Origin: Acidimicrobiia bacterium
GTDB taxonomy: Bacteria; Actinomycetota; Acidimicrobiia; Spongiisociales; ZC4RG35
Assembly: GCA_026002975.1 (NCBI GenBank)
Contig: BPGJ01000003.1
Span: forward strand, 80,552-144,551
Length of the DNA stretch: 64,000 nt
Direction of reading: 5' to 3'
The notes below the pieces were generated by a model that was given only the letters and a program-made list of their open reading frames with translations, did not search any database and was not told the DNA's origin. Both the position numbers and the translations under genes were made by a program. How positions within the stretch are numbered: the stretch's first letter is position 1; every line of letters starts with the position of its first letter. Below, piece by piece: positions 21,067 through 41,431 of this stretch.

Positions 21067-22128
21067 ATGGGAGACCTCCCATTCGACGCGGTTCTGGATC
21101 CCCTGCTCGGCCGAACCCTGGGCGAGCTGGGCATGCTGCGCCAGGCTTCGCGTCGACGGCTTCGATCGGATCGTGTCACCGTCGCCCTCCCGGTACCCAA
21201 CTATCCCCTGGCCGACGTGTTGGCCGAACGGATCCGTCAGGCGGCCGGGGCCGACGTCGACGTGCGTTTCGAGGTGATGAACGACGAGGAGCGGCGGGCC
21301 CTGATGGACCGCCTCCGGGAGAGCTCAGGTCCCGGGATCGGCCAGCCGGGCTCTCGCACCCGGGTGTTGGCGGTCGGATCGGGGAAGGGCGGGGTCGGTA
21401 AGTCTTCGGTGACCACCAACCTGGCGGTGGCTCTCGCCCAGCGGGGTCACCGTGTCGGGGTGATCGACGCCGACATCTGGGGGTTCTCGATTCCCAGGAT
21501 GCTCGGGGTCGCCCACCCGCCGGTGGTCATCGAACAGTCGATCATCCCACCTGTGGCCCACGGCGTGAGCGCCATTTCGATGGACTACTTCGTGGGCGAC
21601 GACCAGGCGGTCATCTGGCGGGGTCCGATGTTGCACAAAGCCATCCAGCAGTTCCTGGAAGACGTCTTCTGGGACGCCCCCGACTTCCTGCTGGTCGACA
21701 TGCCTCCCGGGACGGGCGACGTGTCGATCTCGCTCTCCCAGCTCCTGCCGAGAGCCCAGGTCCTGCTCGTCACGACCCCGCAGCCCACCGCCCAGCGGGT
21801 CGCCAAACGGGCCGGGTTGATGGCCCGCAAGGTGTCTCAGGAGCTGATCGGGGTGGTGGAGAACATGTCGTGGTTCACCGGCGACGACGGAAAGCGGTAC
21901 GAGCTGTTCGGATCGGGGGGAGGGGAGCGACTGGCCGAGGAGCTCGACGTGCCGCTGCTGGCGAAGATCCCGCTGGTTCCCGCGATGAGAGAGGGCGCCG
22001 ACGAAGGCAAGCCGGTGATGCTGGCCGATCCCGAGGGTGAGGCCGCCGAGGCTTTCCGCAGGCTCGCCGAAGAGGTGATCGCCCGTAAGCCGCGGGTTCG
22101 CACCCACCCGGAGTTGGTCATCCGGTGA
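21067..22128 (+). CDS. Mrp/NBP35 (ApbC) family Fe-S cluster carrier ATPase
   Basis: 353 aa. Deviant Walker A VGSGKGGVGKSS, DMPPGTGD and ENMSWF. Confidence 0.9.
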   Translation: MGDLPFDAVLDPLLGRTLGELGMLRQASRRRLRSDRVTVALPVPNYPLADVLAERIRQAAGADVDVRFEVMNDEERRALMDRLRESSGPGIGQPGSRTRVLAVGSGKGGVGKSSVTTNLAVALAQRGHRVGVIDADIWGFSIPRMLGVAHPPVVIEQSIIPPVAHGVSAISMDYFVGDDQAVIWRGPMLHKAIQQFLEDVFWDAPDFLLVDMPPGTGDVSISLSQLLPRAQVLLVTTPQPTAQRVAKRAGLMARKVSQELIGVVENMSWFTGDDGKRYELFGSGGGERLAEELDVPLLAKIPLVPAMREGADEGKPVMLADPEGEAAEAFRRLAEEVIARKPRVRTHPELVIR

Positions 22129-22976
22129 CCATGAGACCGAGCCGACGTCACGTCGTGGGTGTGGTGTCCTGGCTGTTCGGCCTGGCCACCACCGTCACCC
22201 TCATATCCACCTGGGGTCGGGCGGTGAGTGCCGATCCGGCGGCTCTGGTCGACGTCGCCCGGCCGCTGGCCACGGCGACGGTGGTCGTGGACCGCTTCGA
22301 GGATCTGGCCGCCCAGGCTGTGGCGTCGGGGTTGGGCCTCGACCCGGCTACGTCTCGGGCGCTGGTCGATGGCGCCTTCGAAGAGGTCGACGCCGACGGC
22401 ATCCTGGCCGGCCTCCTCTCCGACATGGTCATGGCCGCCGCTTCTTCGGAGAGGACAGTCATCGACCTGGGAGCAAGGCTGATCCCGCTGGCCGAAACGA
22501 TCACCCGGCGTCTGGCCGAGGCGGGGATCCCGGTGGAGCGGACGACGGTGGAGGCCAGTCTCCGATCCCTCGATCCGGTGGTGGTAGAAGGCGGCAGCGT
22601 GGGAAGCGATTCCCAAGCGGCCCGCGGGTTCACCGTGGCGTCCCTGCTGGGCCTGTTGGGCATGTTGGTCACCGGGGGGACGCTGATCGCCATGTCCGAC
22701 CGCAAGGTCGCCGAGGCCCGGGCCCTCCTCAGCCGGGTTGCGCTATCCGCCTTCACCTTCGCCGTCCTCCTCCGCCTCGGATCGTGGCTATCCGACCCGC
22801 GGGGCGGCAGGACCCCCGTCCGTTCGGCCCTGTCGACGCTGCTCGCCCAGAAGACCTGGGTTCCTCTCCTGGTGGGCGCGCTGGCCCTGTCGATCAGCGG
22901 AACCTGGGGCTGGCTGCGCCGCCGGCGCAGGATCGTGCCGTCACCGGAGGAGCGGACGCCGGCGAGGGTCGGCTAG
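22125..22976 (+). CDS. hypothetical membrane protein
   Basis: 283 aa with a GTGA overlap with the upstream gene. One N-terminal and about three C-terminal TM helices. No family recognised. Confidence 0.5.
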   Translation: MTMRPSRRHVVGVVSWLFGLATTVTLISTWGRAVSADPAALVDVARPLATATVVVDRFEDLAAQAVASGLGLDPATSRALVDGAFEEVDADGILAGLLSDMVMAAASSERTVIDLGARLIPLAETITRRLAEAGIPVERTTVEASLRSLDPVVVEGGSVGSDSQAARGFTVASLLGLLGMLVTGGTLIAMSDRKVAEARALLSRVALSAFTFAVLLRLGSWLSDPRGGRTPVRSALSTLLAQKTWVPLLVGALALSISGTWGWLRRRRRIVPSPEERTPARVG

Positions 22977-22989
22977 GTTGCGGGGCCCG

Positions 22990-24579
22990 ATGGCCCCCAC
23001 TCACCTGGCTTTCGTCAACGGGACCGTGTTCACCGGTGATCCCGCTTTCCCGAGAGCTCGTGCGTTGGCCGTCAGGAAAGGTGTGATCTCGGCGCTGGGT
23101 GACGATCGGGAGGTCCTCGCCGACCTCGACGGGAAGACCGAGGTCTTCGACCTGGCGGGCAGGATGCTCCTGCCGGGGTTCCGGGATGCACACGTGCATC
23201 CCATCCACGGGGGGTTGGCGCTGATCGGCTGCGACCTCTCCACGTGCCGCGGTCCCGGGGAGGCAGTCGAGCTGGTGGCGAGCCACGCCGCCCAACTGCC
23301 CGAAGGCGCCTGGGTGAAGGGACGTGGCTGGGCCTACGACTGGTTCGAAGGGGGCTGCCCCGACGCGGAGCTGCTCGACCAGGTGGTGCCGGACCGTCCC
23401 GTCTACCTCGTGGTCCGGGACGGCCACTCCGCCTGGGTCAACCAGGCGGCACTCCTGGCGGCGGGGATCACCCGCTCGACCCCCGACCCGCCCGGTGGGC
23501 GTATCGAACGGAGGCCCGACGGGACCCCTCGGGGGACCCTCCACGAAGCGGCGATGGACCTGGTCGAGGACATCATGCCTCCCGAAACCGACGACGAACT
23601 CGACCGAGCCCTCCAGGCGGGGATCGGGCATCTCGTTTCCTGCGGGGTGACCGGGTTCTGCGACCCGTGGGTCACTCCCTCCTACCACCGGGCCTACCGA
23701 CGGGCGGCCGAACGCTGGGACCTCGCGCTGCCGGTGCGGGGAGCCCTCTGGTGGGACCGGGAAGCCGGGCTCGACCAGATCGAGACCCTGGTCGCCCTCA
23801 GGGAAGAAGGACTCGGCCCGTACCGACCCGGCGCGGTCAAACTGATGCTCGACGGCGTGATCGAGAACCGAACCGCCTCGGTCCTCGAGCCGTACTCGGA
23901 CGGCGGGACCGGCATGGACTTCATCGACCCCGAGCACCTTCCCGAGATCGTCGCCCGCCTCGACCACCTCGGCTTTCAGTGCCACTTCCACGCGATCGGC
24001 GATGCCGCCGTCAGGTCGGCGCTCGACGCGGTCGAGACCGCCCGAGCCCGAAACGGGTTCAGGGACCTGAGGCACACCATCGCCCATCTCCAGCTCGTAG
24101 CTCCCGAGGACGTACCCCGATTCCGACGCCTGGGAGTGGTGGCGAACTGCCAGCCCCTTTGGGCATGCCGGGACGAAGCCATGGTCGACCTCACGGTGCC
24201 GGCTCTGGGCGCCGATCGGGTGCCTCGCCAGTATCCCTTCGGGTCTCTACACCGGAGCGGCGCAGTACTGGCGATGGGCAGCGACTGGCCGGTATCGACC
24301 TCCCAGGTCCCGCCTCAGCTGTGGGTGGCGACTCATCGGACCCCGCCCGACGCTCCCGACGTCGAGCCGCTCGGCCCGGACGAGCGACTCGACCTGCCGA
24401 CCAGCCTGGCTGCGTTCACCGCCGGATCGGCCTACGTCGACCATTCGCCCTCGCCGGGAGTTCTGCAGGTGGGTAACGTTGCCGACCTTGTGGTGTTGGA
24501 CCGCGATCCGTTCGAGGACCTCGCCGGAGCCATGGTCGACCTGACCGTCGTAGCCGGACGCATCCTGTACGAGAGGTGA
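22990..24579 (+). CDS. amidohydrolase family protein (Amidohydro_3-like)
   Basis: I chose the start MAPTHLAFVNGTVFTGD at 22990; the ORF-track N-terminal extension overlaps the previous gene. Motifs LPGFRDAHVHP, HFHAIGD and GSDWPV. Confidence 0.8.
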   Translation: MAPTHLAFVNGTVFTGDPAFPRARALAVRKGVISALGDDREVLADLDGKTEVFDLAGRMLLPGFRDAHVHPIHGGLALIGCDLSTCRGPGEAVELVASHAAQLPEGAWVKGRGWAYDWFEGGCPDAELLDQVVPDRPVYLVVRDGHSAWVNQAALLAAGITRSTPDPPGGRIERRPDGTPRGTLHEAAMDLVEDIMPPETDDELDRALQAGIGHLVSCGVTGFCDPWVTPSYHRAYRRAAERWDLALPVRGALWWDREAGLDQIETLVALREEGLGPYRPGAVKLMLDGVIENRTASVLEPYSDGGTGMDFIDPEHLPEIVARLDHLGFQCHFHAIGDAAVRSALDAVETARARNGFRDLRHTIAHLQLVAPEDVPRFRRLGVVANCQPLWACRDEAMVDLTVPALGADRVPRQYPFGSLHRSGAVLAMGSDWPVSTSQVPPQLWVATHRTPPDAPDVEPLGPDERLDLPTSLAAFTAGSAYVDHSPSPGVLQVGNVADLVVLDRDPFEDLAGAMVDLTVVAGRILYER

Positions 24580-24582
24580 ACC

Positions 24583-25641
24583 TTGCCGGCGGTGGAGCTG
24601 ATCGGGGTCACGAAGCGGTTCGGTGAGGTGATCGCGGTCGACCGGCTCGACCTGGCCGTCGACGACGGGGAGTTCTTCTCACTCCTCGGACCGTCGGGCT
24701 GCGGGAAGACCACCACGCTCAGGCTCATCGCCGGGTTCGAGTTCCCCACGGCCGGATCGGTCCGCATCCATGGACGGGAGGTGGGTCTGGAACCGCCCAA
24801 CCGCCGACCGGTCAACACCGTGTTCCAGTCCTACGCCCTGTTCCCCCACATGACCGTCGCCGAGAACGTTGCCTTCGGGCTCGAGATGCGCCGCCTGCCT
24901 TCTGCGGAGATAGCCGAACGGGTACGGAAGGCCCTCGACATGGTCCAGCTCGCCCATCGGGCGGATGCCCGACCTTCGCAGCTCTCCGGCGGGCAACAGC
25001 AGCGGGTCGCCCTGGCCCGGGCGCTGGTATGCGAACCGGAGGTCCTCCTACTCGACGAGCCGCTGGGGGCGTTGGATCTGAAACTCCGTCAGGCCATGCA
25101 AGTGGAACTCAAGGACCTGCAGGAGAGAGTGGGGATCACCTTCGTGTACGTCACCCACGACCAGCAGGAGGCGCTCACCATGAGCGACCGGATCGGGGTC
25201 ATGAACGAAGGCCGGCTCCTCCAGGTGGGACGGCCGGAGGACATCTACGAACGGCCAACGTCTCGCTTCGTGGCCGACTTCATCGGGGACATCAACCTGC
25301 TGGAAGGTCGAAGGGTCGATTCCGAGACGGTCGAGCTGGTCGGTGGCCACAAGATCAGGGTGCTCGGAGACCCGTCCTCTTCGCACGTCACGGTGGCGGT
25401 TCGCCCGGAACGTCTGGAGCTGATGTCCGACTCCGACCGGCCGCCCGATCGGTTGAACCGGCTCCCCGGCCGCGTGATACGCCGCACCTACCTGGGCGAC
25501 GTGATCGGGTACCGGGTCGACTGTGGGGGAGTGGTCGTCGAAGTCAAGGAGGAGAACCGTTCGGGCCTGGTGGTCCGGCAGGTCGGTGACGACGTTCTGG
25601 TGGTATGGGAACCCGAGGCCGGCGGGATAGTGGTCGACTGA
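24583..25641 (+). CDS. potA: spermidine/putrescine-type ABC transporter ATPase
   Basis: TTG start. Walker A GPSGCGKTT, signature LSGGQQQRVALARA, Walker B LLLDEPLGALD and a PotA-like C-terminal TOBE region. Confidence 0.85.
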   Translation: MPAVELIGVTKRFGEVIAVDRLDLAVDDGEFFSLLGPSGCGKTTTLRLIAGFEFPTAGSVRIHGREVGLEPPNRRPVNTVFQSYALFPHMTVAENVAFGLEMRRLPSAEIAERVRKALDMVQLAHRADARPSQLSGGQQQRVALARALVCEPEVLLLDEPLGALDLKLRQAMQVELKDLQERVGITFVYVTHDQQEALTMSDRIGVMNEGRLLQVGRPEDIYERPTSRFVADFIGDINLLEGRRVDSETVELVGGHKIRVLGDPSSSHVTVAVRPERLELMSDSDRPPDRLNRLPGRVIRRTYLGDVIGYRVDCGGVVVEVKEENRSGLVVRQVGDDVLVVWEPEAGGIVVD

Positions 25642-26507
25642 TGGGCGACGCCAGTCCCGAGGCGGCGGCCGCCAAGGCGGAAGCGATGAGAGGATTCCTC
25701 ATCTCCCTCCCTTCCTACCTGTACCTCGTCTTGTTCTTCGCCGTTCCCTTCGTGATCGTCCTGGTGTATTCGTTCGCCTCCCGATCGTCCACCGGGAGGA
25801 CCGTCCTCGGGGACTGGAACCTGGTGTCCTACAAACGGCTGTTCGATCCGCTGGTAGCCCAGATCGCCTTCCGGTCCCTCTGGTTGGCTTTGGCCACCAC
25901 GCTGCTGTGCCTCGTCGTCGCCTACCCATTCGCCTATTTCATCGCGACCCGCACTCCCCGGGTCCGGAACGCCCTCCTGATCCTGGTGATGATCCCCTTC
26001 TGGTCCAACTTCCTGGTGCGGACGTATGCGTGGCGGGTCCTCCTCGGCAGCGACGGGCCGGTGTCCCAGATCACCCAGGTTCTCGGACTGGGGGAGACGC
26101 GGCTCCTGTTCACCGTTTGGGCGATCCTCATCGGGCTGGTCTACGGGTTCCTGCCCTTCATGGTGTTGCCGCTGTACGCGGCGATCGAGAGGATGGACTG
26201 GAGCCTGGTCGAAGCCGCCCGGGACCTGTACGCCTCGGGATGGACGGCGTTCAGGAAAGTGACCTGGCCCCTCACCACGCCCGGCGTCATCGCAGGGTCC
26301 ATCCTCGTCTTCATCCCGGCTCTCGGGGCCTACGTGACCCCTGCCATCCTCGGCGGGGCCCGAACCGTGCTGTTGGGCGACTACATAGTCGACCAGTTCC
26401 TCGCCGCCCGTAACTGGCCCTACGGCTCGGCCCTATCGGTCGCCCTGATGACGGTCATGCTGTTCGCCACGTTCGTGTACTTCCGGGCAGGGGGCCGCAA
26501 CCTGTGA
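25641..26507 (+). CDS. potB: ABC transporter permease (PotB-like)
   Basis: ATG overlaps the potA stop (ATGA). Six TM helices and an EAA-like loop (EAARDLYASGWTAFRKVTWP). Confidence 0.8.
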   Translation: MGDASPEAAAAKAEAMRGFLISLPSYLYLVLFFAVPFVIVLVYSFASRSSTGRTVLGDWNLVSYKRLFDPLVAQIAFRSLWLALATTLLCLVVAYPFAYFIATRTPRVRNALLILVMIPFWSNFLVRTYAWRVLLGSDGPVSQITQVLGLGETRLLFTVWAILIGLVYGFLPFMVLPLYAAIERMDWSLVEAARDLYASGWTAFRKVTWPLTTPGVIAGSILVFIPALGAYVTPAILGGARTVLLGDYIVDQFLAARNWPYGSALSVALMTVMLFATFVYFRAGGRNL

Positions 26508-27343
26508 ACGGGCGACCACGGTCACCTGTGGAGCGCCTCCTGGCGGCCAACGCCTGGGCGGTGTTCGCCTTCTTCTACCTGCCGATCCTGGTGTTGATCG
26601 TCCTCTCGTTCAACGAGAACCGCAACGTGAACATCTGGACCGGGTTCTCCACCCGCTGGTACGGAGAGATCCTCGACAACGCCGACGTGCTGAGGGCGTT
26701 GCGGAACTCCCTCGTGGTCGCAGGTGTGTCCACCGTGTGTTCCACTGCCTTGGGCACAGCCGCGGCCCTCGCGGTGGAACGCTTCAGATTCCGGGGTCGC
26801 CGTCTCTTCGACGGGCTTTTGTATCTCCCCATCATCATCCCCGACGTCACCATGGCGGTGATGATGCTCCTGTTCTTCGTGCAGGCCCTCGATCTGGTCA
26901 ACGGCCTGTTGGGTACCCGCCTCAACCTTGGTCTGGCGACCATCAGCCTCAGCCACATCGCTTTCAACATCTCCTTCGTGGCCGTGGTGGTGAGAGCCCG
27001 TCTGGGTCAGCTGGATCCGGCGATCGAGGAGGCCGCCGCCGACCTGTATGCCGGGCGGTGGCAGGTGTTCCGTCGGGTCACCCTGCCCCTCATACTCCCA
27101 GGGGTGCTGGGCGGCGCCCTCCTCGCCCTCACCTTGTCCCTCGACGACGTTGTGATCACCTCTTTCGTGTCGGGTCCGGGGTCCACCACCCTTCCTGTGT
27201 ACGTCTTCGGCCTGGTCAGGCGAGGCGTGACCCCCCTGATCAACGCGGTCTCCACCGTGATGTTGTTAGGGTCGATGCTGCTCGTGGGCCTGTCGCTAAT
27301 GGTGCAGCGTCGGCCGGCGACCCTAGGAGGAGGAAACCGATGA
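26504..27343 (+). CDS. potC: ABC transporter permease (PotC-like)
   Basis: 279 aa with a 4-nt overlap upstream. EAA loop EEAAADLYAGRWQVFRRVTLP. Confidence 0.8.
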   Translation: MNGRPRSPVERLLAANAWAVFAFFYLPILVLIVLSFNENRNVNIWTGFSTRWYGEILDNADVLRALRNSLVVAGVSTVCSTALGTAAALAVERFRFRGRRLFDGLLYLPIIIPDVTMAVMMLLFFVQALDLVNGLLGTRLNLGLATISLSHIAFNISFVAVVVRARLGQLDPAIEEAAADLYAGRWQVFRRVTLPLILPGVLGGALLALTLSLDDVVITSFVSGPGSTTLPVYVFGLVRRGVTPLINAVSTVMLLGSMLLVGLSLMVQRRPATLGGGNR

Positions 27344-28452
27344 GACGCAGAACGACCTGGATGGTCCCGATCGCCGTGGTGGGCCTGATGTTGGCCGCAT
27401 GCGGGGGCGGCGGAGGGGCTGGGGGAGACACCACCGCAGCGGCCGACACCACCTGCGAACTCGACCAGACGGACGGCAACCTGAACCTGTACAACTGGTC
27501 CGACTACATCGACCCCGAACTCGTCACCGCCTTCGAGGAGCAGTACGGAGTCGAGGTGGTGGAGAGCTTCTACGAGTCCAACGAGGCGATGTTGGCCCAG
27601 ATCCAGTCGGGCGTCTCCTACGACCTGATCGTCCCGTCCGACTACATGGTGTCGATCATGATCGAGGAAGAGCTGCTCCTGCCGCTCCAGAAGGACGCCA
27701 TCCCCAACATCGCCAACCTGGCCCCCGAATTCACCGACCCGCCCTACGACCCCGGCCTCCGGTACTCGGTGGCCTACCAGTGGGGAACCACCGGCCTCGG
27801 GGTGAACCTGGAAGCGGTAGGCGACGCCTTCGTGGAGAGCTGGGCGCTCGTCTTCGACCCTGAGTTGACCCAGAACTTCCCGGGAGGTGTGTCCCTCCTC
27901 GACGACCCCCGTGAGACGATGGGGGCAGCCCTCAAGTACCTGGGATACTCCCTCAACGACACCGACCTCGATCACCTCGCCGAAGCGAGGGACGTCATCA
28001 GGGCCGCCAAGCCCTACATCGCCACCTTCGATTCGGACCAGTACGACGAAGCCCTGGTCAACGGGGAGGTCTCGGTCTCGCACGGATACTCGGGGGACCT
28101 GCTGGCTGCGATCTGGGACGCCGAGAACCCGGACGCCTACACCTACGTGATCCCCGAGGAAGGTGGAACCCTGTGGGTCGACAACATGGCGATCCCCGCC
28201 GACGCCGAGCATCCCTGCACGGCCCACACCTTCGTCAACTTCATGCTCGACGGTGAGAACGGCGCGGCCCTCACCAACTGGACCTACTACGCCAGTCCCA
28301 ACGCGGCGGCCGAACCGCACATCCTGCCCGAGATCCTCGAGGATCCCACCATCTACCCCTCCGACGAGATCCGGCAGCGCCTGGAGATCATCGCCGACAC
28401 CGGCGACTACGAGATCAACTTCACCGACTACTTCGCCCAGGCCAAGAGCTGA
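27340..28452 (+). CDS. potD: polyamine-type ABC substrate-binding lipoprotein (PotD-like)
   Basis: ATGA overlap with potC. Lipobox LMLAACGG. PotD/PotF-like body (LNLYNWSDYI, YDLIVPSDY, WVDNMAIP). Confidence 0.8.
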   Translation: MRRRTTWMVPIAVVGLMLAACGGGGGAGGDTTAAADTTCELDQTDGNLNLYNWSDYIDPELVTAFEEQYGVEVVESFYESNEAMLAQIQSGVSYDLIVPSDYMVSIMIEEELLLPLQKDAIPNIANLAPEFTDPPYDPGLRYSVAYQWGTTGLGVNLEAVGDAFVESWALVFDPELTQNFPGGVSLLDDPRETMGAALKYLGYSLNDTDLDHLAEARDVIRAAKPYIATFDSDQYDEALVNGEVSVSHGYSGDLLAAIWDAENPDAYTYVIPEEGGTLWVDNMAIPADAEHPCTAHTFVNFMLDGENGAALTNWTYYASPNAAAEPHILPEILEDPTIYPSDEIRQRLEIIADTGDYEINFTDYFAQAKS

Positions 28453-28458
28453 GCGGTG

Positions 28459-28540
28459 CCGGCTGGGGGGGTGCTCACCGCTCCCCCCAGTCGTAGGTCT
28501 GCTTGACCAGCCGGAGATAGCCGTAAATCTCGGAGGACAC
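28459..28540. repeat. copy 1 of 3 of the lrp 3'-end + GC hairpin repeat (diverged)
   Basis: Minus-strand reading gives ..VSSEIYGYLRLVKQTYDWGER*, against the native Lrp end VSSEVFSYLRLVKQTYDWGAR*. Contains the G7/C6 hairpin directly after the potD stop. Confidence 0.85.
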
Positions 28541-28606
28541 CGCGTTCTTGGCCTCGGCTGAAGATATGGCACACACGCCTGTCGAGACTTGAGGCGGTTT
28601 CGGGCG

Positions 28607-29677
28607 TCAGGGAACCCGTAGTACCCGGACTGGATCGCGGAAGGCAGCCACTACTGCGGGTGGGAGGGCGGCCGCCACTGCGGTGAGGACGGCGAGGACA
28701 GCGATAGCCAGACCGAAGCGTGGCTCGGGAGGCAACCCGGTTATCCGGTAGAGGGCCAGCCAGGCGCCTGTTGACCCGATTCCGGCCCCGAGTGTGGCGG
28801 AGAGACTGGTTTGGAGGCACACCAGGGTGACGATGGCGGGTCGGGATGCTCCCAGGGCGCGGCGGCGGCCGAAGTCGCGTCGTCTTCCGCTCACCGCCCC
28901 GTAGACGTTCAACCCGGTGAGAACCAGCCCGGCGGCCAGGACCGCGGTGATCAGGTTGCGTCCGAACCGTCCCAGTTCGCCCTGCACGGCCGCTCTCACC
29001 TGCGCCAACGCCTCCGAGGTCTCTATGGCTACGGCGGTGGGATCGGCGGGAGCGAGGACCATGAGGGCGGCGTCGGCGACTTTTCCCACCAGGGAGGGGC
29101 GCTCCACCAGGATGTGGATCGACCGCAGCTGGGTGGCCGGGGCGGTGAGGAGGCTCCGGTTGAGGAAGGCGAGGGGGTCGTCGGCGGTGAAAGAGCCCAC
29201 GATGGCGACATCGCCCTGGTTGGTCACCCCTCCGCCGAAGGGCAACTCGAGTCCCAGGGTTTGGGCGGCTTCGGGTCCGACCAGGGCCCGGCCTGGTCCC
29301 ATGGCGGCGCCGTCGGTGTGGATTTGGGGAGGAAGGTCCCCGTAGATGGCCCGCATCGCAGCCGGGTCGCCTCCCGGGTTTCCCGCCGGGCGTACGTCGG
29401 TGGTCGGTCCCAGACCGATCACCCATTCCACCCCGGCGATCCTGGTGATCCGGTCCACGGCTTCGGTGGTGAGGCCGGCGGCTCCGTTGGTGTCGGAGAT
29501 GACAATCGACCTGGTGCCCGCCTCGTCGATCCTGGCCAACACCTGTTGTTCCGCCTGTACGGTCTGACCGGTGGTGGAGAGGATGACGGCACACACCCCG
29601 GCGACGATGAGAGCGGTCACCGCTGAGCTCACCGGCTGGGCCACCGCCGAACGCAGCGCCTCCAACACCAGCTTCAC
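28607..29677 (-). CDS. FtsX/MacB-type ABC permease, copy 1
   Basis: GTG start at 29677 overlaps the ATPase stop (GTGA). N-terminal TM, ~200-aa extracytoplasmic domain, then 3 C-terminal TM helices. The ORF-track N-terminal extension is Arg/Pro-rich junk. Confidence 0.8.
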   Translation of the reverse strand: MKLVLEALRSAVAQPVSSAVTALIVAGVCAVILSTTGQTVQAEQQVLARIDEAGTRSIVISDTNGAAGLTTEAVDRITRIAGVEWVIGLGPTTDVRPAGNPGGDPAAMRAIYGDLPPQIHTDGAAMGPGRALVGPEAAQTLGLELPFGGGVTNQGDVAIVGSFTADDPLAFLNRSLLTAPATQLRSIHILVERPSLVGKVADAALMVLAPADPTAVAIETSEALAQVRAAVQGELGRFGRNLITAVLAAGLVLTGLNVYGAVSGRRRDFGRRRALGASRPAIVTLVCLQTSLSATLGAGIGSTGAWLALYRITGLPPEPRFGLAIAVLAVLTAVAAALPPAVVAAFRDPVRVLRVP

Positions 29678-30306
29678 AGTTCTAGCACCTCGTCGCAGAC
29701 CCCGACGATGTCGGGGTCGTGGGTGGCGATGATCACTGTCCGTTGCTCGCCGGCCAGTTCGGCGAGGGTGTCCACTACGAGCTGGGAGGTGCGGACGTCC
29801 AGGTTTCCTGTGGGCTCGTCGGCGAGGATCAGGTCGGGTCGGGCCAGCAGGGCACGGCATAGGGCGATCCGCTGTGCCTGACCACCCGACACCTCCCCCG
29901 GCTTGTGGTCGGCACGCAAAGCAACCTCGAATCTCTCCATCAGCTTTCGAGCCCGCCGCACCGCCTCACCTCGTGGGATGTCGTTGTAGAGGTGGGATTC
30001 GACGATGTTGTCGAGGACGGTGCGGGTGGGGTCCAGGGCAGCGTCCTGGAACACGAACCCCACCCTGGTCGCCCGGAAGCGAGACTTTCGCCCATCCGAA
30101 AGCCTGCCCAGGTCGACATCACCAGCCCGCACCGCTCCCGACCAGGGTGTGAGCAGCAGCCCGATCAGGTAGAGGAGGGTCGACTTGCCCCTCCCCGACG
30201 GGCCGGTGACCGCCGTCATCGCCCCCGGGGTGAAACGCCAGGTGAGGTCGGAGATGATGGGTTCGTCGCGCCGGTATCCGAACCAGACCGAGTCGAGGGT
30301 GATCAT
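29674..30306 (-). CDS. ABC transporter ATP-binding protein (MacB/LolD-like), copy 1
   Basis: 210 aa. Walker A GPSGRGKSTLL, signature VSGGQAQRIALCRAL and Walker B ILADEPTGNLD. Confidence 0.9.
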   Translation of the reverse strand: MITLDSVWFGYRRDEPIISDLTWRFTPGAMTAVTGPSGRGKSTLLYLIGLLLTPWSGAVRAGDVDLGRLSDGRKSRFRATRVGFVFQDAALDPTRTVLDNIVESHLYNDIPRGEAVRRARKLMERFEVALRADHKPGEVSGGQAQRIALCRALLARPDLILADEPTGNLDVRTSQLVVDTLAELAGEQRTVIIATHDPDIVGVCDEVLEL

Positions 30307-31352
30307 CGCTGGGGAAGCAGGATCACCGTGCCCGGCTCGATTCCATCCACCACTGCGATCCCCTGGGCCGACTCTACGATCTCCACCGGCACCTGGGTGC
30401 CGTCAGGACGGGTCACGAAGGGGTGGTTGGCCGGGTCGGTGCCGATCGCAGCCACCGGAACCACCGGGCCGGTGGTGTCGGGGACGACTATCACATCGGC
30501 GCGGAAGCTGGTCCGTCCCTGGAGATCCACCCACCGGGCACAGTCGTCACCACACACCGACCCCCCATCAGCCCCGACCAGGAACAGGTCGAGCTGACCC
30601 GTCTGCGGGCTTTCCACAGCCCGGTCGATAAGAGCATCCCACACACCCCCGGAGTAGTGGACTCGAACCTGGCCAGTCAACGGAACCAGGGCGGCCTGTT
30701 CCACGGCGAGGGGAATCCGGAAAACCGGGTCATCGGGAACGAGGAGGATCGCCGTCTCCCCTCCCCCAACCCTGGCGCCCACACTGAGATCTTCCGCCAC
30801 GGCGATCCGCGCCGGGAGAGCCGGCACGAAGACGAGATCCCCCGCCTCCACCACCCCCGTATCCTCCACTCCCAGGGCTCTCTGCCACACCCGCACCGCG
30901 GTCCGGGTGGCGGTGCCGTACCAGCCATCGGCATCACCCGAGTACAAGCCGAGGTAGGCGAGCAGCCGCTGCAGCTGAGCCACGTCAGCCCCCCGATCCC
31001 GCAGCCGCAAAGACCGGAACATCGGAACCTCACCCTCGGCGACCACCACGGGACGGAGATTCACCGTATACACAACTTCGCCAGGTCCGACCACGTCCCC
31101 GGGCGCGACCTCCACCGAAGTGACCACCCCGGCGGCCGAGTTGAGCCCGGCCGGGACCAGAGACCACTCCGCCACGGCGGTGAAACTAAACGACCGGCCT
31201 ACCGTCCCCACCTCCACGACATATGTGAGAGGGGTCGAATCTTCGGCAAGCGGGTTGGCGGGAGGCTCCAAAGCCACCCGCCCCGCCCAATAGCCGGCTG
31301 CTCCCGTGGCGACGAGCAGAAGGGCCAAGCCGGCGATGCGCAAGAGCCTCAT
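30303..31352 (-). CDS. membrane-fusion/HlyD-like adaptor with peptidoglycan-binding domain, copy 1
   Basis: ATG 31352 overlaps the regulator stop (ATGA). N-terminal TM. PG_binding_1-like GADVAQLQRLLAYLGLYSGDADGWYGTATRTAVRVWQ inserted in a beta-rich adaptor-like protein. Confidence 0.7.
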   Translation of the reverse strand: MRLLRIAGLALLLVATGAAGYWAGRVALEPPANPLAEDSTPLTYVVEVGTVGRSFSFTAVAEWSLVPAGLNSAAGVVTSVEVAPGDVVGPGEVVYTVNLRPVVVAEGEVPMFRSLRLRDRGADVAQLQRLLAYLGLYSGDADGWYGTATRTAVRVWQRALGVEDTGVVEAGDLVFVPALPARIAVAEDLSVGARVGGGETAILLVPDDPVFRIPLAVEQAALVPLTGQVRVHYSGGVWDALIDRAVESPQTGQLDLFLVGADGGSVCGDDCARWVDLQGRTSFRADVIVVPDTTGPVVPVAAIGTDPANHPFVTRPDGTQVPVEIVESAQGIAVVDGIEPGTVILLPQR

Positions 31353-31831
31353 AGCTCCGACAGCTTCGGGAACAGCGGGGCCAGCCGAGTCCAGCGGCAC
31401 TCATGCGTCAGGTGTGCGGCTTCCTTGAGCTCGGCGAGGCGGCGCCGGATCTGTCTTCCCGAGTAGCCGATGAGCTCCGAAGCCTCCTCTGGGCTCACCC
31501 CATTGGCGGCCAGAGCCACAATCCTCCATTCGAGCTCGCGTGCCCCGAGGTCGCTGGGACGGAACAGTGAGTACACCCGACTTCCAGAAGCAATGCTCAC
31601 CAAGTGGCCCACTCCGATCTCCTCTGCCCGCAAGATACCCGCCACGTCCAAGTCGCAAAGGGCCTTGAGAACTGCGGGCAGCCCAGAGGGAATGAACGCC
31701 ACCGGATCGGATGCCATTGCAGCCACCTCGACCCTGTCGGTCACCACAACGTCGGACTCTGCCGGAATGTTGGTGGGCAGCCTGGAGGCGAGGGCGGCGG
31801 CCAGCTCGGGGTTGCGGACGTTGATGATCAC
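31349..31831 (-). CDS. HTH regulator (LuxR/GerE-like C-terminus, unknown N-terminal domain), copy 1
   Basis: GTG 31831 is preceded by AGGAG at 8 nt (alternative GTG at 31840). C-terminal ARELEWRIVALAANGVSPEEASELIGYSGRQIRRRLAELKE resembles a LuxR/sigma-r4 HTH. Confidence 0.55.
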   Translation of the reverse strand: MIINVRNPELAAALASRLPTNIPAESDVVVTDRVEVAAMASDPVAFIPSGLPAVLKALCDLDVAGILRAEEIGVGHLVSIASGSRVYSLFRPSDLGARELEWRIVALAANGVSPEEASELIGYSGRQIRRRLAELKEAAHLTHECRWTRLAPLFPKLSEL

Positions 31832-31874
31832 ATCGCCCACTCCTGCCCCCTTTCCTCGGCGATCGCACGTGATT

Positions 31875-32123
31875 CTATGGGGGGGGGTCGGTTGAAGATG
31901 CCTCGGCCAGCTCGGCCTCCTGATCCGAGTTCGAGCCCGGTCGCAGCCCAGCGTCCCGCTCGACCCGACGCAACCAGCCCCGCAGTGTCTCAGATGCACA
32001 CCCGAACTTCGCGGCGATCGAACAGATCGCCGACCACTCCGAGGGGTACTCCTCTCGATGCTCGACCACCCGGCGAACCGCACGCTCAAGGACCTCCAGC
32101 GGATACCTGATTGTCTTTGCCAT
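31875..32123 (-). pseudogene. IS3-family OrfA (HTH) fragment
   Basis: MAKTIRYPLEVLERAVRRVVEHREEYPSEWSAICSIAAKFGCASETLRGWLRRVERD is typical of IS3/IS911 OrfA. No OrfB follows, and the ORF runs into the G-tract. Confidence 0.6.
31879..31887. repeat. homopolymeric G9 tract (C9 on the operon strand)
   Basis: Read directly: gattctat-ggggggggg-tcggttgaagatg. The equivalent tract in copy 2 is G11. Confidence 0.95.
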
Positions 32124-32170
32124 AGCTCCATCCTCCCAAGGATCAGAGCCTCCGGGAAACCGGGGCGGGT

Positions 32171-32575
32171 TCAGAGGTATCGCTGCCGGGTGGCTGGGTC
32201 GATGCGTTTCAGGGTGTAGGCCCACCAGTTGAAGGTGTCTCTGAGACGGGTGTTGCAGGCTCGACGCATCCGCACCCGGGCGGTCTTGCCTGAAGAGCAG
32301 GCCACCGGTGCTAGGCCGGCTTCGGCGAGGAGAGCGGCCGGGGTGGGGAACCGGTTTCGGTCTTCTCCGATTCAGGTGAGAAGGTTGGCGGCGATCACTG
32401 GGCCGGCTCCTGGGAAGCTGGTGAACAGCTCAGCGTCGGGATGGCGGGCAAACACGGTGGCGATCCGCTCGTCGAATCCTTTGAGTTGTTTGTTGAGCAG
32501 TTCGAGCTGGCCAGCCAGAGCGAGTGCTCCGCAGCTACGCCCGTTGGGCTGGTTCGGATGACGGCTGGTGACCAT
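32171..32575 (-). pseudogene. IS110-family transposase C-terminal fragment with an in-frame stop
   Basis: LFTSFPGAGPVIAANLLT*IGEDRNRFPTPAALLAEAGLAPVACSSGKTARVRMRRACNTRLRDTFNWWAY matches the IS110 C-terminal domain. The N-terminal catalytic part is missing. Confidence 0.6.
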
Positions 32576-32683
32576 CGCGCTGGCGGTGGGTCTGGTCCTA
32601 GCTGGTAGCGGCGTTCCGGGATCCGAGGCGGGTGTTGCGCAGCCCGTGAAGGTCGCGAAATCCCGGCTGGCGGATCGCTTGCG

Positions 32684-32703
32684 GTGTGTGTGTGTGTGTG
32701 TGT
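32684..32703. repeat. (GT)10 dinucleotide microsatellite
   Basis: Read directly: gcg-gtgtgtgtgtgtgtgtgtgt-cagg. Confidence 0.95.
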
Positions 32704-32870
32704 CAGGATAAGGGGTGCGGGGTCGGGCTTAGGGAGGCCCGGAGAGCAGGGGAGGCCCTCATGGGTGGGAAGGTGCCGCCGCCAGATCAGCACCCTCGGC
32801 CAACAGCCGGTCCGACTTCCCGCAGCCTCCCGATGATCTCCTCCGGTGTATGCCGTCGTCGTCTTCCCAT
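32703..32870 (-). pseudogene. second IS3-like OrfA N-terminal remnant (frameshifted)
   Basis: MGRRRRHTPEEIIGRLREV, then in the next frame SDRLLAEGADLAAA. This resembles the start of IS3-family OrfA proteins. It is short and broken. Confidence 0.4.
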
Positions 32871-33144
32871 CGTGATGATCCCTCCTTCACCCACCATTGT
32901 GGGCAACAGGCTCTCAATACGAGTGGGCCAATCTCAAGGGGTCACTCCGGGTTTCGTTCTCGATCTCCTCAGGAGCTGGAGAAGGCGAAGGAAGCGATCA
33001 AGCGGATCACGGAGCAGTTGGGTTACGGCTGGGTTACGGCGCGGAGTCGGTACTGCTCCCACGCAACCGATCGGGGCGATTGCAGCGAATGTCCGAATGA
33101 GGACGACGCATCGGCACAGATGACAACTGAATAGAAGGAGCGAC

Positions 33145-34515
33145 ATGATTGCAGGTGATCAACCGCAAGCGAAGAGCGAGCATCGGTCCATCATTGCCTG
33201 GTTGATAGCCGGCTTCGTCTTGGGCTTCGCCAGCCTCGGTGTGCTGCTGCAGGGCGGATTCGCCGGCGCCGCGCCCTCTCCAGACCCGACACAATGGGAT
33301 CCGGACGTACACCCGCCATTGTATATCGTACATGAAGCTCGGTCAGTCACGGACGCCGGGAGCATCGTCGACGTGCAAGTTCATGTCGCTTGTGACTTCG
33401 CAGCCCTGCGAACTTCGGAGTGTTCACCCGATGTGACGTTGTGGGCGTCGTGGGGCGGAAGCCCGTATGTCGAAGTGCCGCTAGCTGAGACACGTGTGGA
33501 CTCACTGCAAGTGTGGACCGCCCACTTGCCAGCCAGGCACCCACAATTGGGTTCTCTCAGGTACTACTTCGAAGCGTCGCACCGCGCTTTAGGCGAGCCA
33601 GTCCGCTCCCCTATCTCCGGGGTCTATGAACCTGCAGTGTTCGATTCGTTCGTTGCGGTACCACTCGATGCCCCCACATTCGTGGAACCGGAGATTGTCT
33701 TGGAAGCCCCATGGGGAACCGGTCCAACCGAGATCGGGCTGGAAGATGGCTCTGAACAAGCAACAGTTGGGCCCGACGCCTTCGCTTACGCGGAGGACGG
33801 TACCCTGGCGCTGCTCGACCAGGTGAATGGTCGTGTCGTTACGGTTAGCCCGGAAGGAGTATGGACGACGTTTGACGCGCCGTTAAAGGGCGTAGGGGAC
33901 GTCGCGTTCAGCGGATCAAGCATACTAGTGCTTGACCTAGTCGGGGAGACCCAAGGACTTTCTCGTGTCCGGATCCCGCAGATCCTGAAGTACGACAGAG
34001 AAGGTTCGCTATTGGCGAAAGCTCCAGTGTTTGCAATGGAGCCCCGCAGGTTGCTCGCATCAGGTGCCGTAGTCGACGAATCGTCGAACTCACTGGTCTA
34101 CCCATTCGACGGCACCGCTGCCCGATCCCGATCTGAGCAGCGAGCAACGAGAAAGCCACACTCGTTCCGCGTTCAGGTCGTGTCCGACCAAGTAGCGTGG
34201 CTGGCAGATCTCGGCACTGACACTGCCTTCGAAGTCGATGCGACAACTGGTGAGCTCGGCGCAATTCCGGAGTTCACGCGTCTAGGCGATTCGTATCTCG
34301 TGGTTTTCGACCAGCCAAACACTTTTCGCATTGTCTGGTTCGACTCGAACGGCACTGTCGAGCGAGATGTGACGGTCGCCAACGAACGACATTCCGTATT
34401 CCTCCCGAAGGGGAGAGTCGCCGTGACTTCGAGGGGTGACGTTCTCATCTTGAACTCCGACGAGGATGGGATATCCATTATGCGTGTCCCAGGACCGAGG
34501 GGAGGTAAGTCATGA
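33145..34515 (+). CDS. membrane-anchored extracytoplasmic protein, unknown function (cargo A1)
   Basis: GAAGGAG RBS 5 nt before the ATG. N-terminal TM (IIAWLIAGFVLGFASLGVLL). The C-terminal half has repeated beta-strand-like segments and shares a GP..A...DG....LD....RV motif with cargo A5. Confidence 0.65.
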   Translation: MIAGDQPQAKSEHRSIIAWLIAGFVLGFASLGVLLQGGFAGAAPSPDPTQWDPDVHPPLYIVHEARSVTDAGSIVDVQVHVACDFAALRTSECSPDVTLWASWGGSPYVEVPLAETRVDSLQVWTAHLPARHPQLGSLRYYFEASHRALGEPVRSPISGVYEPAVFDSFVAVPLDAPTFVEPEIVLEAPWGTGPTEIGLEDGSEQATVGPDAFAYAEDGTLALLDQVNGRVVTVSPEGVWTTFDAPLKGVGDVAFSGSSILVLDLVGETQGLSRVRIPQILKYDREGSLLAKAPVFAMEPRRLLASGAVVDESSNSLVYPFDGTAARSRSEQRATRKPHSFRVQVVSDQVAWLADLGTDTAFEVDATTGELGAIPEFTRLGDSYLVVFDQPNTFRIVWFDSNGTVERDVTVANERHSVFLPKGRVAVTSRGDVLILNSDEDGISIMRVPGPRGGKS

Positions 34516-35129
34516 AATCTCGGGTCGCGATCTTGACCGGCGGAGTGCTACTGGGGATGGGAGTCGCCCTCTTGGTCTCGAAACCAGTGGAAGCTGGGTA
34601 CTCCATCACATGTTGGACCCGTAGTAACGCCGTCAGTTACTCGTACACTGCTCTGCACGAAGGATACGAGTGGGGAGGCGGGTGGTGGACCGACAACAAC
34701 TACGACGACACGCCGAGCTGCCCTACAGATGGCGGGTCTGGCTGTGAAGGTCCTGATTGCTCCGGGCTCGTATTCAAATCCTGGGCGATGGTGAACTCGT
34801 GGGGCAGCACTGGCAAGTACTACTGGTATGCCGGTGACAACGTACACGGGCCATACTCATCGACCTCTTTCCGAGACGGCTGTGGCGGGGCTTGCTACGA
34901 CGTTTGCACCCGGCCCTGCGGGTCAGGTTCATATTCACTCACGATCCCGATGGATGCATTCGCAAAGAGTGGTCACATTGGCCTAATCTGGTCGGAAGGG
35001 TCCGACGGTTACGACGATATCCTTGAGGCGCACTCGAATAACGCTGGCGTTATTCTTTCCGAACGCTCGTACCGGCTCTCCAGCTCTTATGACGGAGTAC
35101 GTAGAAAGAACTGGAGCACTAGCTGTTGA
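34512..35129 (+). CDS. secreted NlpC/P60-like cysteine peptidase with Cys-rich N-terminal extension (cargo A2)
   Basis: ATGA overlap with A1. Signal peptide ending VEA. Catalytic-type motifs GPDCSGLVFKSW, SGHIGLIW and LEAHS in the NlpC/P60 Cys...His...His order. Confidence 0.6.
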   Translation: MKSRVAILTGGVLLGMGVALLVSKPVEAGYSITCWTRSNAVSYSYTALHEGYEWGGGWWTDNNYDDTPSCPTDGGSGCEGPDCSGLVFKSWAMVNSWGSTGKYYWYAGDNVHGPYSSTSFRDGCGGACYDVCTRPCGSGSYSLTIPMDAFAKSGHIGLIWSEGSDGYDDILEAHSNNAGVILSERSYRLSSSYDGVRRKNWSTSC

Positions 35130-35188
35130 AGAAGGGAGGTCTGAAGAGAGGCCAGAGAAGGGAGAAGAGTCGACATACTATTGGATGA

Positions 35189-35587
35189 GTGACCGCCAAG
35201 GATGGAGGTACTAAGATGCGACGAGAGATCGACAGGACGGGTGGATTATTCACGAAAGACGTTGCACAGAACAGGCTCCGGCAACGACTTGTCGCCGGGC
35301 TTATCCTCGTATTCTTAGTGGTACTTGCTTTCGCGCCAGCTGCTTTCGCCTACGGATACCGATCGGGCTCCTCGAGCTGCCCGTACGGTAAACAGGTGAG
35401 AATCGTGTCCCGGACAACGATGAACTACAAGCACTACTGGGAGTCGGGCCTTGCCGAAGACTGGTTTGGGGATAGCAGTCCCCACTGGGCCTACACGAAG
35501 ACGTGGGAGCAGAGCACCGATTGGACCGTGACCACAGACGGTGCCCTGTACAATGCATACACCGACTGCGTCTATATGCCTGTGTGA
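35189..35587 (+). CDS. small secreted protein (cargo A3); alternative start at 35216
   Basis: TM/signal (LVAGLILVFLVVLAFAPAAFA), then a ~85-aa mature part with 2 Cys ending WTVTTDGALYNAYTDCVYMPV. Its 3' 113 bp recur at 44411..44523. Confidence 0.55.
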   Translation: MTAKDGGTKMRREIDRTGGLFTKDVAQNRLRQRLVAGLILVFLVVLAFAPAAFAYGYRSGSSSCPYGKQVRIVSRTTMNYKHYWESGLAEDWFGDSSPHWAYTKTWEQSTDWTVTTDGALYNAYTDCVYMPV

Positions 35588-36300
35588 GAGCCGTTGTGCG
35601 ACACCCCTCGATGCTGATAGCGGCTGCTCTCTTGATGCTGATCTCTGCGTGTGCAGGCGAGACGGAGACGTCTACTACCGCTCCAGGGTCTTCGACCCTT
35701 TCTACCCTGGTTGGAGCCACTGAGAGCCCCTCGAAGTCGCCGGCTGCCGGCCTGTCGGCGGGCCAGGAGGAGCCGTCCGATACGGCGGGGGAGGGGGAGC
35801 CGTCCGATACGGGTGGCCTTCAGGGTGGTGGGCCATCCCAGCCGCCGCGGGTGGGTCGTAACTGGACTCCGGACCAGATCAAGCGATTCCTCAAGGCATG
35901 TGTCGAGGCTGAGGGCTTCACTGTGTCTTTGTCCGACACCGGCGCACTGGAGTGGCGCGGACCGGCGGAACAGCGTGAGGCAGCCAGCGCAGCCTTCGCC
36001 CGATGTCGAGAGCAGCTGCCTGTTTCTGTGCGCACCTATCACCCACCAACGGAGGAGGAGATCCGCGGTTGGTACGACGTCTTCCTCGAGGTGGCAGCGT
36101 GTCTTGAACGGGAAGGCTACGAGGTTCCGCCGCCACCGTCGATCGACTCGTTCGTCGAGTCGCAGGGATCCAACTGGCATCCTTATGACCTGGTGGTGGC
36201 GGATCCGACCCTGCCGTGGGGGGAGTGGGTGCGGCTGAACGAAGTGTGCCCCCAGGGCGGGGTCGAGGGCACTTCCACCGGAGACGATCATGCGGACTGA
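35584..36300 (+). CDS. lipoprotein, unknown function (cargo A4), paralogue of 44752..45474
   Basis: GTG overlaps the A3 stop (GTGA); alternative starts at 35596 and 35611. Lipobox LMLISAC, low-complexity linker, and a C-terminal Cys-containing domain (ACLEREGYEVPPPPSIDSFVE). Confidence 0.6.
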   Translation: MRAVVRHPSMLIAAALLMLISACAGETETSTTAPGSSTLSTLVGATESPSKSPAAGLSAGQEEPSDTAGEGEPSDTGGLQGGGPSQPPRVGRNWTPDQIKRFLKACVEAEGFTVSLSDTGALEWRGPAEQREAASAAFARCREQLPVSVRTYHPPTEEEIRGWYDVFLEVAACLEREGYEVPPPPSIDSFVESQGSNWHPYDLVVADPTLPWGEWVRLNEVCPQGGVEGTSTGDDHAD

Positions 36301-37387: not shown

Positions 37388-37447
37388 ACCCGGCACCCCG
37401 AGAGCAGGCGTCGCTCGGAGGGGACATCGGATCAAGACGACATCTTT

Positions 37448-37490
37448 CTGTGCGGATCTTTCCCGTCCAGGCCGCAGCAGATCCGCACAG
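37448..37490. terminator. 12-bp perfect inverted repeat (possible terminator or protein-binding site)
   Basis: ctgtgcggatct-(19 nt)-agatccgcacag, 60 nt after the A5 stop. No T-tract follows. Confidence 0.35.
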
Positions 37491-37650
37491 AACCTGAGGA
37501 GCCCCAACGCCGACCCGGAGGGGCAACGCCTCCCGGCATGGGGTGGTGGTAGGTAGGCGTCCCGTGAAGTGGTGGAAATGGGGGTGGGGGTCCTTGGACA
37601 TGTGGGGCCACCGTGTGACTCTCAGCGAGTTCAAGCAACGAGCTCGAGAC

Positions 37651-38010
37651 ATATGAGTCGGTCGACACCTCCGGCGCGTCCTGGGAAGGCATCCAGATGC
37701 GGTGCCCACAGTCGCCGGCAGGCGGCTACGGCGCCTGGGATCCAGGCGACCCGATCCGCCCCCTCAACTCGCCACGAGAGCAGTGACGGCGAAGACGATC
37801 GGGGTTGTCTCTTCTCCAACAGGTTCGGGACGAAAGGCCAATCGGTGCGCATTGCGTCCCGTTCCCGTCGACCACCGTGGACGACGGGATCTACGCCAAC
37901 ACCCTGCTCCACGGTGGTCATGTGCCCCGGCCGGCTGGGGGGCGCTCACCGCGCCCCCCAGTCGTAGGTCTGTTTGACCAGCCGGAGATAGCTGAAACCT
38001 CGGAGGAGAC
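37651..38010. repeat. ~360-bp direct repeat of 45339..45699 (lipoprotein 3' end, spacer, hairpin, lrp 3' end; copy 2 of the lrp repeat is 37931..38010)
   Basis: Same sequence apart from about 2 substitutions and a 1-nt deletion (gttttc to gtttc). Encodes YESVDTSGASWEGIQMRCPQSPAGGYGAWDPGDPIRPLN(S/P)PREQ*. Confidence 0.9.
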
Positions 38011-41385: not shown

Positions 41386-41431
41386 ACCGCCCACTCCGGC
41401 CCCCTTTCCTCGGCGATCGCACGTGATTTTA

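Follow-up and report, generated by a model that had tools for sequence, protein, structure and literature searches.

The window analysed here is a stretch of 64 kb of Acidimicrobiia DNA in which two tandem units, delimited by copies of the lrp tail, lie between the convergent genes potD and lrp. The question raised by this locus is how one gene end came to be present three times around two islands. The initial annotation had hesitated between serial site-specific insertion at the 3' end of lrp and amplification of a single island through its flanking repeats. The target gene lrp (45634-46107, minus strand) encodes an AsnC/Lrp-family regulator of 157 aa, as indicated by Pfam, the translation and its orthologs, and is divergent from a class-III aminotransferase gene (46227-47576). 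On the other side, potD (27340-28452, plus strand) encodes a spermidine/putrescine-type solute-binding lipoprotein (Pfam SBP_bac_8/6/1; synteny in the related loci L106 and L113). It is the final gene of potABCD, its stop codon TGA is located at 28450-28452, and it forms the left chromosomal flank of the island pair. The rest of the 64-kb window is composed of housekeeping genes, and no tRNA or tmRNA was found in it.

The lrp tail is present in three direct copies

The copies, all on the minus strand, were compared by direct reading, blastn and alignment. Copy 1 (28458-28541, 84 bp) is attL-like, orphan and decayed; copy 2 (37930-38011, 82 bp) is attI-like and orphan; copy 3 (45618-45700, 83 bp) is attR-like, constitutes the functional 3' end of lrp and is the only one joined to the gene body. 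Three direct copies, with an intact lrp at the last one only, had been announced from the first reading; both statements hold, with boundaries that are identical or displaced by 1-2 bp. A 39-nt core pattern, searched with at most three mismatches, has exactly three matches in the 64 kb, for none expected (100 shuffles). The repeat corresponds to the final 22 codons of lrp (V-S-S-E onward) and to ~16 nt past the stop codon, the coding share of the ~84 bp being about 60-66 bp.

Copy 2 had been described as nearly identical to the native end; compared with copy 3, it displays one substitution and a 1-nt deletion. This deletion is its own, and it carries an A that is common to copy 1. Its lrp-like similarity probably extends ~13 bp further, to position 38024. 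Copy 1, described as diverged and encoding ..VSSEIYGYLRLVKQTYDWGER*, was read in the same way. It differs from the functional tail by eight substitutions and one indel (an extra G), the substitutions are spread over the codon positions as 2/2/3, and two of its residues are absent at those positions from 43 orthologs. Copies 1 and 2 share ~90% identity over 84 bp, with a longest perfect-match run of 19 bp. The 1-nt deletion of copy 2 places the orphan tail in frame with an upstream ATG (37946-38107, minus strand), itself preceded by AAGGAAAAAG; the predicted ORF of 50 aa reads MAYGSAQNPH...YLRLVKQTYDWGAR.

The repeat contains a hairpin (G6CGC/GCGC6) with a G+C-rich stem of 11 bp and a loop of 5 nt that holds the lrp stop codon (45634-45636, in the hairpin 45623-45649). 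The corresponding hairpin is perfect in copy 2 (37935-37961) and imperfect in copy 1 (28463-28490); the folding energy of copies 2 and 3 is -34.3 kcal/mol (z = -3.1). The structure is palindromic and without U-run, and could terminate lrp, the convergent p240 gene and, at the orphan copies, the FtsX operon. The hairpin of L106 differs, and that of the lrp-proximal tail of L113 (tail B) has one mismatch.

Gene content of the two units

Unit 1 (U1; 28542-37929, ~9.4-9.5 kb) is composed, in order, of a 23-bp junction, a four-gene operon, IS debris, a cargo of lower GC, a p132/p265 pair, a DUF7485 gene, a p240 stub and a right arm. The left junction (28542-28564) is unrelated to that of unit 2 (J2). 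The operon (28607-31825, minus strand) encodes, according to Pfam, an FtsX permease (28607-29860), an ABC ATPase (29674-30306), a PG_binding_1/adaptor-like protein (30303-31352) and an HTH protein (31349-~31825). The IS debris (31878-32728, minus strand) begins precisely at the end of the homology between the two operons (31874). It includes an IS3 OrfA-like HTH remnant (31878-32225; 51% to the IS3 OrfA of locus L081) and an IS110-family Transposase_20 fragment (32174-32371, possibly to ~32728). The cargo (33145-37387, plus strand; GC 0.56-0.60 in part) encodes a membrane-anchored protein of 456 aa, a secreted protein of 205 aa, the small secreted protein p132, the lipoprotein p265 and the DUF7485 protein. 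The right arm (37650-37929, plus strand) consists of a 137-bp 3' end of a p240-type gene, the stub, and of 143 bp of non-coding DNA. The 205-aa protein (34512-35129) displays the motif DCSGLV...GHIGL, with NlpC/P60-like Cys and His; its match to the mycobacterial NlpC/P60 proteins RipA/RipB is weak (E ~0.15), and by its motif it is a possible cell-wall hydrolase.

Unit 2 (U2; 38012-45617, ~7.6-7.7 kb) contains the junction J2, the operon, an ISL3 element, the genes p290 and p181, an ORF of 91 aa, p240 and the right arm. J2 (38012-38118, 107 bp) separates copy 2 from the block downstream of FtsX and holds no integrase remnant. The four genes of the operon (38161-41379, minus strand; Pfam) are followed by a frameshifted ISL3 transposase gene (41543-42764). 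The lipoprotein p240 is intact in this unit (44752-45474) and is a paralog of p265. The start of the right arm (45338-45617) falls inside the p240 3' end. U2 is flanked by a repeat of 363-377 bp, made of the 280-bp arm shared with U1 and of the tail (copies 2 and 3). In both units, IS debris adjoins the 5' end of the operon (IS3/IS110 in U1, ISL3 in U2). An IS3 lies upstream of the same operon in L081-L083, and the FtsX gene of L113 is cut by another ISL3; the boundary beyond the operon 5' end seems to be a recurrent IS target.

Three blocks are shared by the units. The first (28565-31874 and 38119-41428; 3310 bp, 98.1% identity) includes the complete HTH/PG-binding/ABC/FtsX operon. The second (35487-35599 and 44411-44523) has 113 bp and 95.6% identity, and the third (37650-38011 and 45338-45700) has 99.2% identity, with a single difference in the 280 bp of the right arms. 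The middles are unrelated and of reduced GC (0.56-0.60 versus 0.66-0.69), and the U1 cargo segment 31875-37649 is entirely unlike U2.

Search for recombinases and transfer genes

Pfam was applied to the main ORFs and to the stop-free segments of unannotated stretches, and tblastn was run with int, xis, TrwC and all proteins of the loci L088, L084 and L081. No tyrosine or serine recombinase, excisionase or relaxase was detected in the island (all frames of the unannotated stretches) or in the 64-kb window, so that the absence of recombinase first noticed for the island extends to the whole window. The distance between the FtsX stop codon and the tail, 65 bp in U1 and 136 bp in U2, contains no recombinase domain. 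The mobility-type genes of the island are only the IS3, IS110 and ISL3 debris, and relaxase/oriT, FtsK-type Tra and phage structural genes have no match in it. The cargo had no match in PADLOC, NCBIfam or Rfam. The units thus have neither the integration enzyme of their own nor the transfer or phage genes of a self-sufficient element (ICE, IME, AICE or prophage).

Empty and occupied sites in related genomes

The decisive loci came from a metagenome scan with a codon-degenerate pattern of the tail, combined with a search for Lrp homologs. The scan of species-representative genomes with Lrp recovered only distant relatives (at most 72% identity) without conserved synteny, and no additional tails or island proteins.

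In L106, whose Lrp has 86% identity, ~25 bp separate lrp from an intact and convergent potD-potC-potB-potA. The window aligns to this locus over 21692-28540 and 45641-54712, both flank alignments overlap on a single tail, and 17.1 kb are inserted in the window. L106 is therefore the empty site, with potD directly convergent on lrp, that the initial annotation had proposed to look for. The one-unit variant that it also sought is represented by L113, which contains one U2-type unit and no U1. These two loci together back the reading that the repeats are att-like and mark the junctions of two inserted islands.

L113 is a close relative of the window, with about 94% nucleotide identity in the flanks; third codon positions differ at 41/450 sites in the aminotransferase gene and at 54/371 in potD. 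It is the full version of a contig found in L089, L104 and L105 (100% identity over 14.2 kb). L089 had been considered as a clean empty site and was rejected, since it belongs to the occupied L113. The order in L113 is an intact potD, a spacer, tail A, J2, an FtsX remnant cut by the ISL3, an unrelated ABC cassette, an orphan segment with the last 86 bp of potD, a spacer, tail B and lrp. J2 adjoins tail A with five differences from the J2 of the window (107 bp). The difference between L113 and the window is bounded by the tails, and the left end of U2 is orthologous to the L113 remnant. As J2 is without integrase in both, the resident unit had no integrase before the strains split. Copy 3 differs from tail B of L113/L089 at one position and shares all its coding markers with L106.

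The island of L113 (~5.2 kb) is itself flanked by a direct repeat of 187 bp, 95% identical (10408-10581 and 15693-15879), that comprises the last 86 bp of potD, the spacer, the lrp tail and 13 more bp. The stretch potD'-spacer-tail B-lrp would most simply be the relic of an unoccupied allele, possibly brought in by a recombination event with its anchor in lrp.

Integrative elements carrying the same operon

Acidimicrobiia metagenomes frequently contain homologs of the PG-binding protein, at identities of up to 75%. In L109, the order is PGB-ABC-FtsX-SEC-C-xis (HTH_17)-int-tRNA-Lys, the integrase being a tyrosine integrase of 411 aa. In the loci L086-L088, several paralogs of p240/p265 and of p132 surround the operon, and genes for xis, an integrase and a TrwC relaxase are present as well. 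In L107, xis-int adjoins a tRNA-Arg; the context of L107/L108 at tRNA-Arg is unrelated. Because the operon is shared with elements that carry xis-int, the units of the window are regarded as stripped-down relatives of real integrative elements.

The xis-int pair of L109 lies immediately downstream of FtsX, where the units of the window have only the 65-136 bp before the tail. The integrase-bearing relatives target tRNA genes and have the intact target at the integrase/FtsX end, whereas lrp is found at the opposite, p240 end. No lrp-specific integrase turned up anywhere, these relatives included.

The pair formed by the small secreted protein p132 and the lipoprotein p240/p265 is present, as diverged paralogs, around the operon in every related element examined (window 35189-36300 and 44406-45474; L088 4985-5953 and 12797-15899; L084 13212-13871). 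It has no match in Pfam, NCBIfam or PADLOC, and may be a toxin/immunity or exported-substrate module.

Kinship of the two units

The two operon copies show 62 differences, of which 55 are located in genes and 40 of these at third codon positions (40/~1137 third positions). These differences are patchy, with 19 in the first 300 bp and none in the next 300. In a 1059-bp comparison of FtsX, 43 differences from L113 are common to both units, and 15 and 16 are private to U1 and U2, respectively. By this comparison the two units are sisters relative to the L113 unit. Sister status would fit a duplication within the lineage or the arrival of U1 from a very close relative, and gene conversion could contribute to it. 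As in a segmental duplication, the units are mutual closest relatives; the collinearity and the identical internal junctions of such a duplication are lacking.

The left end of U1 stands apart. In the first 42 bp of its operon block (28565-28606) there are seven differences from U2, and L113 has the U2 state at 7/7. The 23-bp junction and this 42-bp patch suggest that the left end of U1 has another origin than the rest of its operon.

Exchange point and relative ages of the tails

One marker of the tail, GGA[C/G]ACC, located near the edge that faces the lrp body, separates two groups. GGACACC unites copy 1 with tail A, whereas copies 2 and 3, tail B and L106 all read GGAGACC. Copy 1 agrees with tail A both in the C state and in having potD to its left, and is most economically seen as its ortholog. 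Copy 2 has the G state, yet its right flank (J2) is that of tail A. Since copy 2 combines this marker with this flank, the most economical position for the exchange that would have inserted U1 with its own tail is within the last ~3 bp (ACC), at the edge facing the lrp body. We infer this placement from a single marker and from flank logic. A crossover in the hairpin loop, which one T/C marker had suggested, is not supported; the indel of the G-run conflicts with it, and the opposite end of the repeat is indicated by marker (g).

That edge is where the tyrosine integrases of tRNA genes and gene 3' ends normally cross over, and the rest of the identity block rebuilds the gene end. The last ~3 bp of an 84-bp repeat with 90% identity are, conversely, an unlikely resolution point for RecA.

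Between copy 1 and tail A, ~10/84 positions are different, a divergence within the neutral range between the strains, which makes the orphan tail older than the strain split. Copies 2 and 3 differ at 2/84 positions, similar to the third-position divergence of the operons of U1 and U2. The 2/2/3 spread of the substitutions of copy 1 and its residues unseen in orthologs indicate a decaying relic and not an imported functional tail. For the same reasons, the origin of copy 1 from a foreign functional lrp under coding constraint was rejected.

Origin of the tandem

The explanation that we place first, and to which we give an even chance, is that the tails are the attL-attI-attR sites of two islands without integrase that resemble CIMEs (cis-mobilizable elements), assembled by site-specific accretion with the enzyme acting in trans. 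An integrative element whose att site contains a spare lrp 3' end (66 coding nt and the hairpin) would recombine at the edge nearest to the lrp body, displacing the old tail towards potD and leaving a working tail on lrp. The U2-type element would have lost xis-int, or would never have had them, before its split from the nearest sequenced relative. Later, in the lineage of the window, the closely related U1, possibly arriving as a separate circular element, would have been added by a reciprocal exchange in the orphan tail on the potD side, again at this ~3-bp point. This exchange would most likely have been catalysed in trans by the tyrosine integrase of an integrase-bearing relative. The orphan tails would then decay in the order of their age, and each would probably double as a terminator of the FtsX operon that precedes it.

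Accretion is supported by the agreement of the architecture with the published scheme of decay followed by accretion in CIME arrays (PMC5704250) and with the pathogenicity islands (attL-attI-attR) described in pathogenic Streptomyces (PMC8369830). Against accretion in trans stand the absence of an lrp-specific integrase from everything searched, the tRNA targets of the relatives and their reversed target orientation, the single marker that places the crossover, an adjacency U1-copy 2-J2 known from one metagenome-assembled contig, and the kinship of the units: their sister status relative to L113 (43 versus 15 and 16 sites) is what duplication within the lineage predicts.

Amplification is a serious rival, although we hold it to be rather unlikely. 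In this scenario, a RecA-dependent unequal crossing-over, with tails on sister chromosomes as partners, would have duplicated a single resident island, and U1 would later have become a mosaic by replacement of its junction and cargo. Besides the sister status of the units, it accounts for the similar divergence of copies 2 and 3 (2/84) and of the units, for right arms that differ at only 1/280 bp, for a p240 stub identical to the p240 3' end of U2, and for the lack of an integrase, with a J2 that was integrase-less before the strain split. It predicts, however, J2 at the left of both units, where U1 has an unrelated 23-bp junction and a 42-bp patch with 7/7 private differences, and a common cargo, where 31875-37649 is wholly different. 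With these unlike left junctions and cargo, amplification needs at least two further replacement events, whereas the arrival of a related element needs none. An exchange in the last ~3 bp of the repeat would leave almost no flanking homology for RecA. The 62 changes, with 40/55 of the in-gene ones at third positions, point to both operon copies having been long under selection, and tandem duplications of kilobase scale are usually unstable. The simple amplification of one island envisaged by the initial annotation is, in that form, not supported by these observations (unlike junctions, unlike cargo, mostly third-position changes). Its wider proposal of mobilisation in trans or of exchange via the flanking repeats remains a fair reading, the integrase-less tail-J2-FtsX junction being common to L113.

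A third explanation, which we regard as improbable, dispenses with integrases entirely. Circular copies bearing a tail would integrate by a RecA-mediated single crossover of Campbell type and be lost by the reverse reaction. The window without recombinase and the ancient integrase-less state agree with it, and the repeats of 363-377 bp (U2) and 187 bp (L113) are long enough for RecA. The exchange point placed at the very edge of the homology does not agree, copies 1 and 2 (~90% identical, perfect runs of at most 19 bp) would be a poor RecA substrate, and relatives of the element do carry xis-int.

There is a slim likelihood that the islands are long-lived satellites that never carried a recombinase, outlasted a strain split in this state and were still multiplied by exchange at a fixed 3-bp point of the 84-bp tail. 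The enzyme would then be a recombinase, either encoded by the host or of an unrecognised type, or else the integrase of some unrelated element. If this were true, the convergent ends of potD and lrp would be a dedicated landing pad for cassette swapping, an idea supported by the different ABC cassette that L113 has there between the 187-bp repeats of the potD-lrp junction.

An assembly artefact, in which two strains with one island each (U1 or U2) would have been joined through the shared arm and tail, is very improbable. The source is a 220-kb metagenome-assembled contig, the near-identical blocks of 3.3 kb and 0.36 kb could mislead an assembler, and the adjacency U1-copy 2-J2 was seen in one sample only. 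Copy 2 nevertheless has a sequence of its own (the 1-nt deletion and the A common to copy 1) and is not a re-used copy 1 or 3, assembly k-mers typically exceed the tail in length, so that the path arm-tail-J2 needs real spanning reads, and the adjacency tail-J2-FtsX is independently present in L113.

Finally, the strong G+C-rich hairpin might suggest a generic terminator or a REP-like element, widespread and without relation to lrp, an outcome that the initial annotation had named as fatal to its own reading, and this is refuted, as the 64 kb hold three copies only, none dispersed at unrelated loci, 60 of the 84 bp are lrp coding sequence, all 15 matches of the codon-degenerate pattern in the metagenome scan are inside lrp genes, the pattern has no match in viral contigs nor the arm/tail DNA in phage records, and no Rfam family matched the island or the window.

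Comparison with known integrative islands

The structure is of a known kind; what is new is the lrp target gene and the Acidimicrobiia host clade. As in CIMEs, the repeats at the ends are att-like copies of the target end, of which copy 3 completes lrp, genes for integration or transfer are absent, and the insertion is polymorphic (L106 is empty, and in L113 tail A is joined directly to J2). The relatives that have the same cargo with integration and transfer functions (xis-int, relaxase) sit at tRNA genes and not at lrp.

The closest parallel is given by the CIMEs related to ICESt1/ICESt3 at the 3' end of fda in Streptococcus thermophilus (PMC5704250), which have kept attL and attR and are devoid of integration and transfer genes. 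There too, the att repeat holds the 3' end of a protein-coding gene, tandem attL-attI-attR structures are built up, and IS debris is found in decayed units. The att repeat of fda has 27 bp, versus 84 bp here. Unlike the CIMEs at fda, both units of the window are without integrase and no cognate ICE is in view, the newer unit seems to have inserted into the orphan tail distal to the target and not into the attR beside the gene, and the host is an uncultured Acidimicrobiia lineage.

The toxicogenic region of Streptomyces, or PAISt (TR1, a CIME, and TR2, an ICE, at aviX1; PMC8369830), is likewise a modular actinobacterial island at the end of a protein-coding gene, with three att sites and one module that lacks an integrase and is mobilised in cis. 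It differs by its att site, an 8-bp palindrome (TTCATGAA) where the window has an 84-bp replacement gene end, by the int/xis and conjugation genes of its other module, absent here, and by its size (20-570 kb versus 8-9 kb).

The Acidimicrobiia elements at tRNA genes (L109, L086-L088 and L107) share with the window the cargo operon and the p240/p132 families. As in these elements and in those of the pSAM2/SLP1 type, the 3' end of the target gene is restored in the window by a long block of identity, with the crossover inferred at the 5' edge of the block; long att identity segments are usual in actinomycete integrative elements of this type. Unlike the units of the window, L109, L086-L088 and L107 have genes for xis and a tyrosine integrase, to which L086-L088 add TrwC, and they target tRNA-Lys or tRNA-Arg; the target in the window is a protein-coding gene, and the intact target is placed the other way round with respect to the FtsX end. 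Searches of the literature for lrp as an integration target and for ICEs of Acidimicrobiia gave nothing relevant.

The locus leaves current concepts unchanged. It adds the 3' end of an AsnC/Lrp gene, and the little-studied and mostly uncultured Acidimicrobiia, to the att-bounded tandem islands without integrase. Its empty, one-unit and two-unit states constitute a small natural series that bears on the upkeep, the multiplication and the enzyme of such islands. The module of HTH protein, PG-binding adaptor, ABC ATPase and FtsX, accompanied by small secreted proteins and lipoproteins, is found on integrative elements and on a plasmid across Actinomycetota, and may be an export or immunity cassette. 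The plasmid is pCL-A6099 of Clavibacter (L112, NZ_CP083440.1), where a PGB-ABC-FtsX homolog with 40% identity occupies positions 9001-11773; its PG-binding gene is missing from the gene table of the plasmid. This plasmid is mobilizable (MOBF), and its operon lies near a signal peptidase I gene and a gene for thiopeptide-type bacteriocin biosynthesis.
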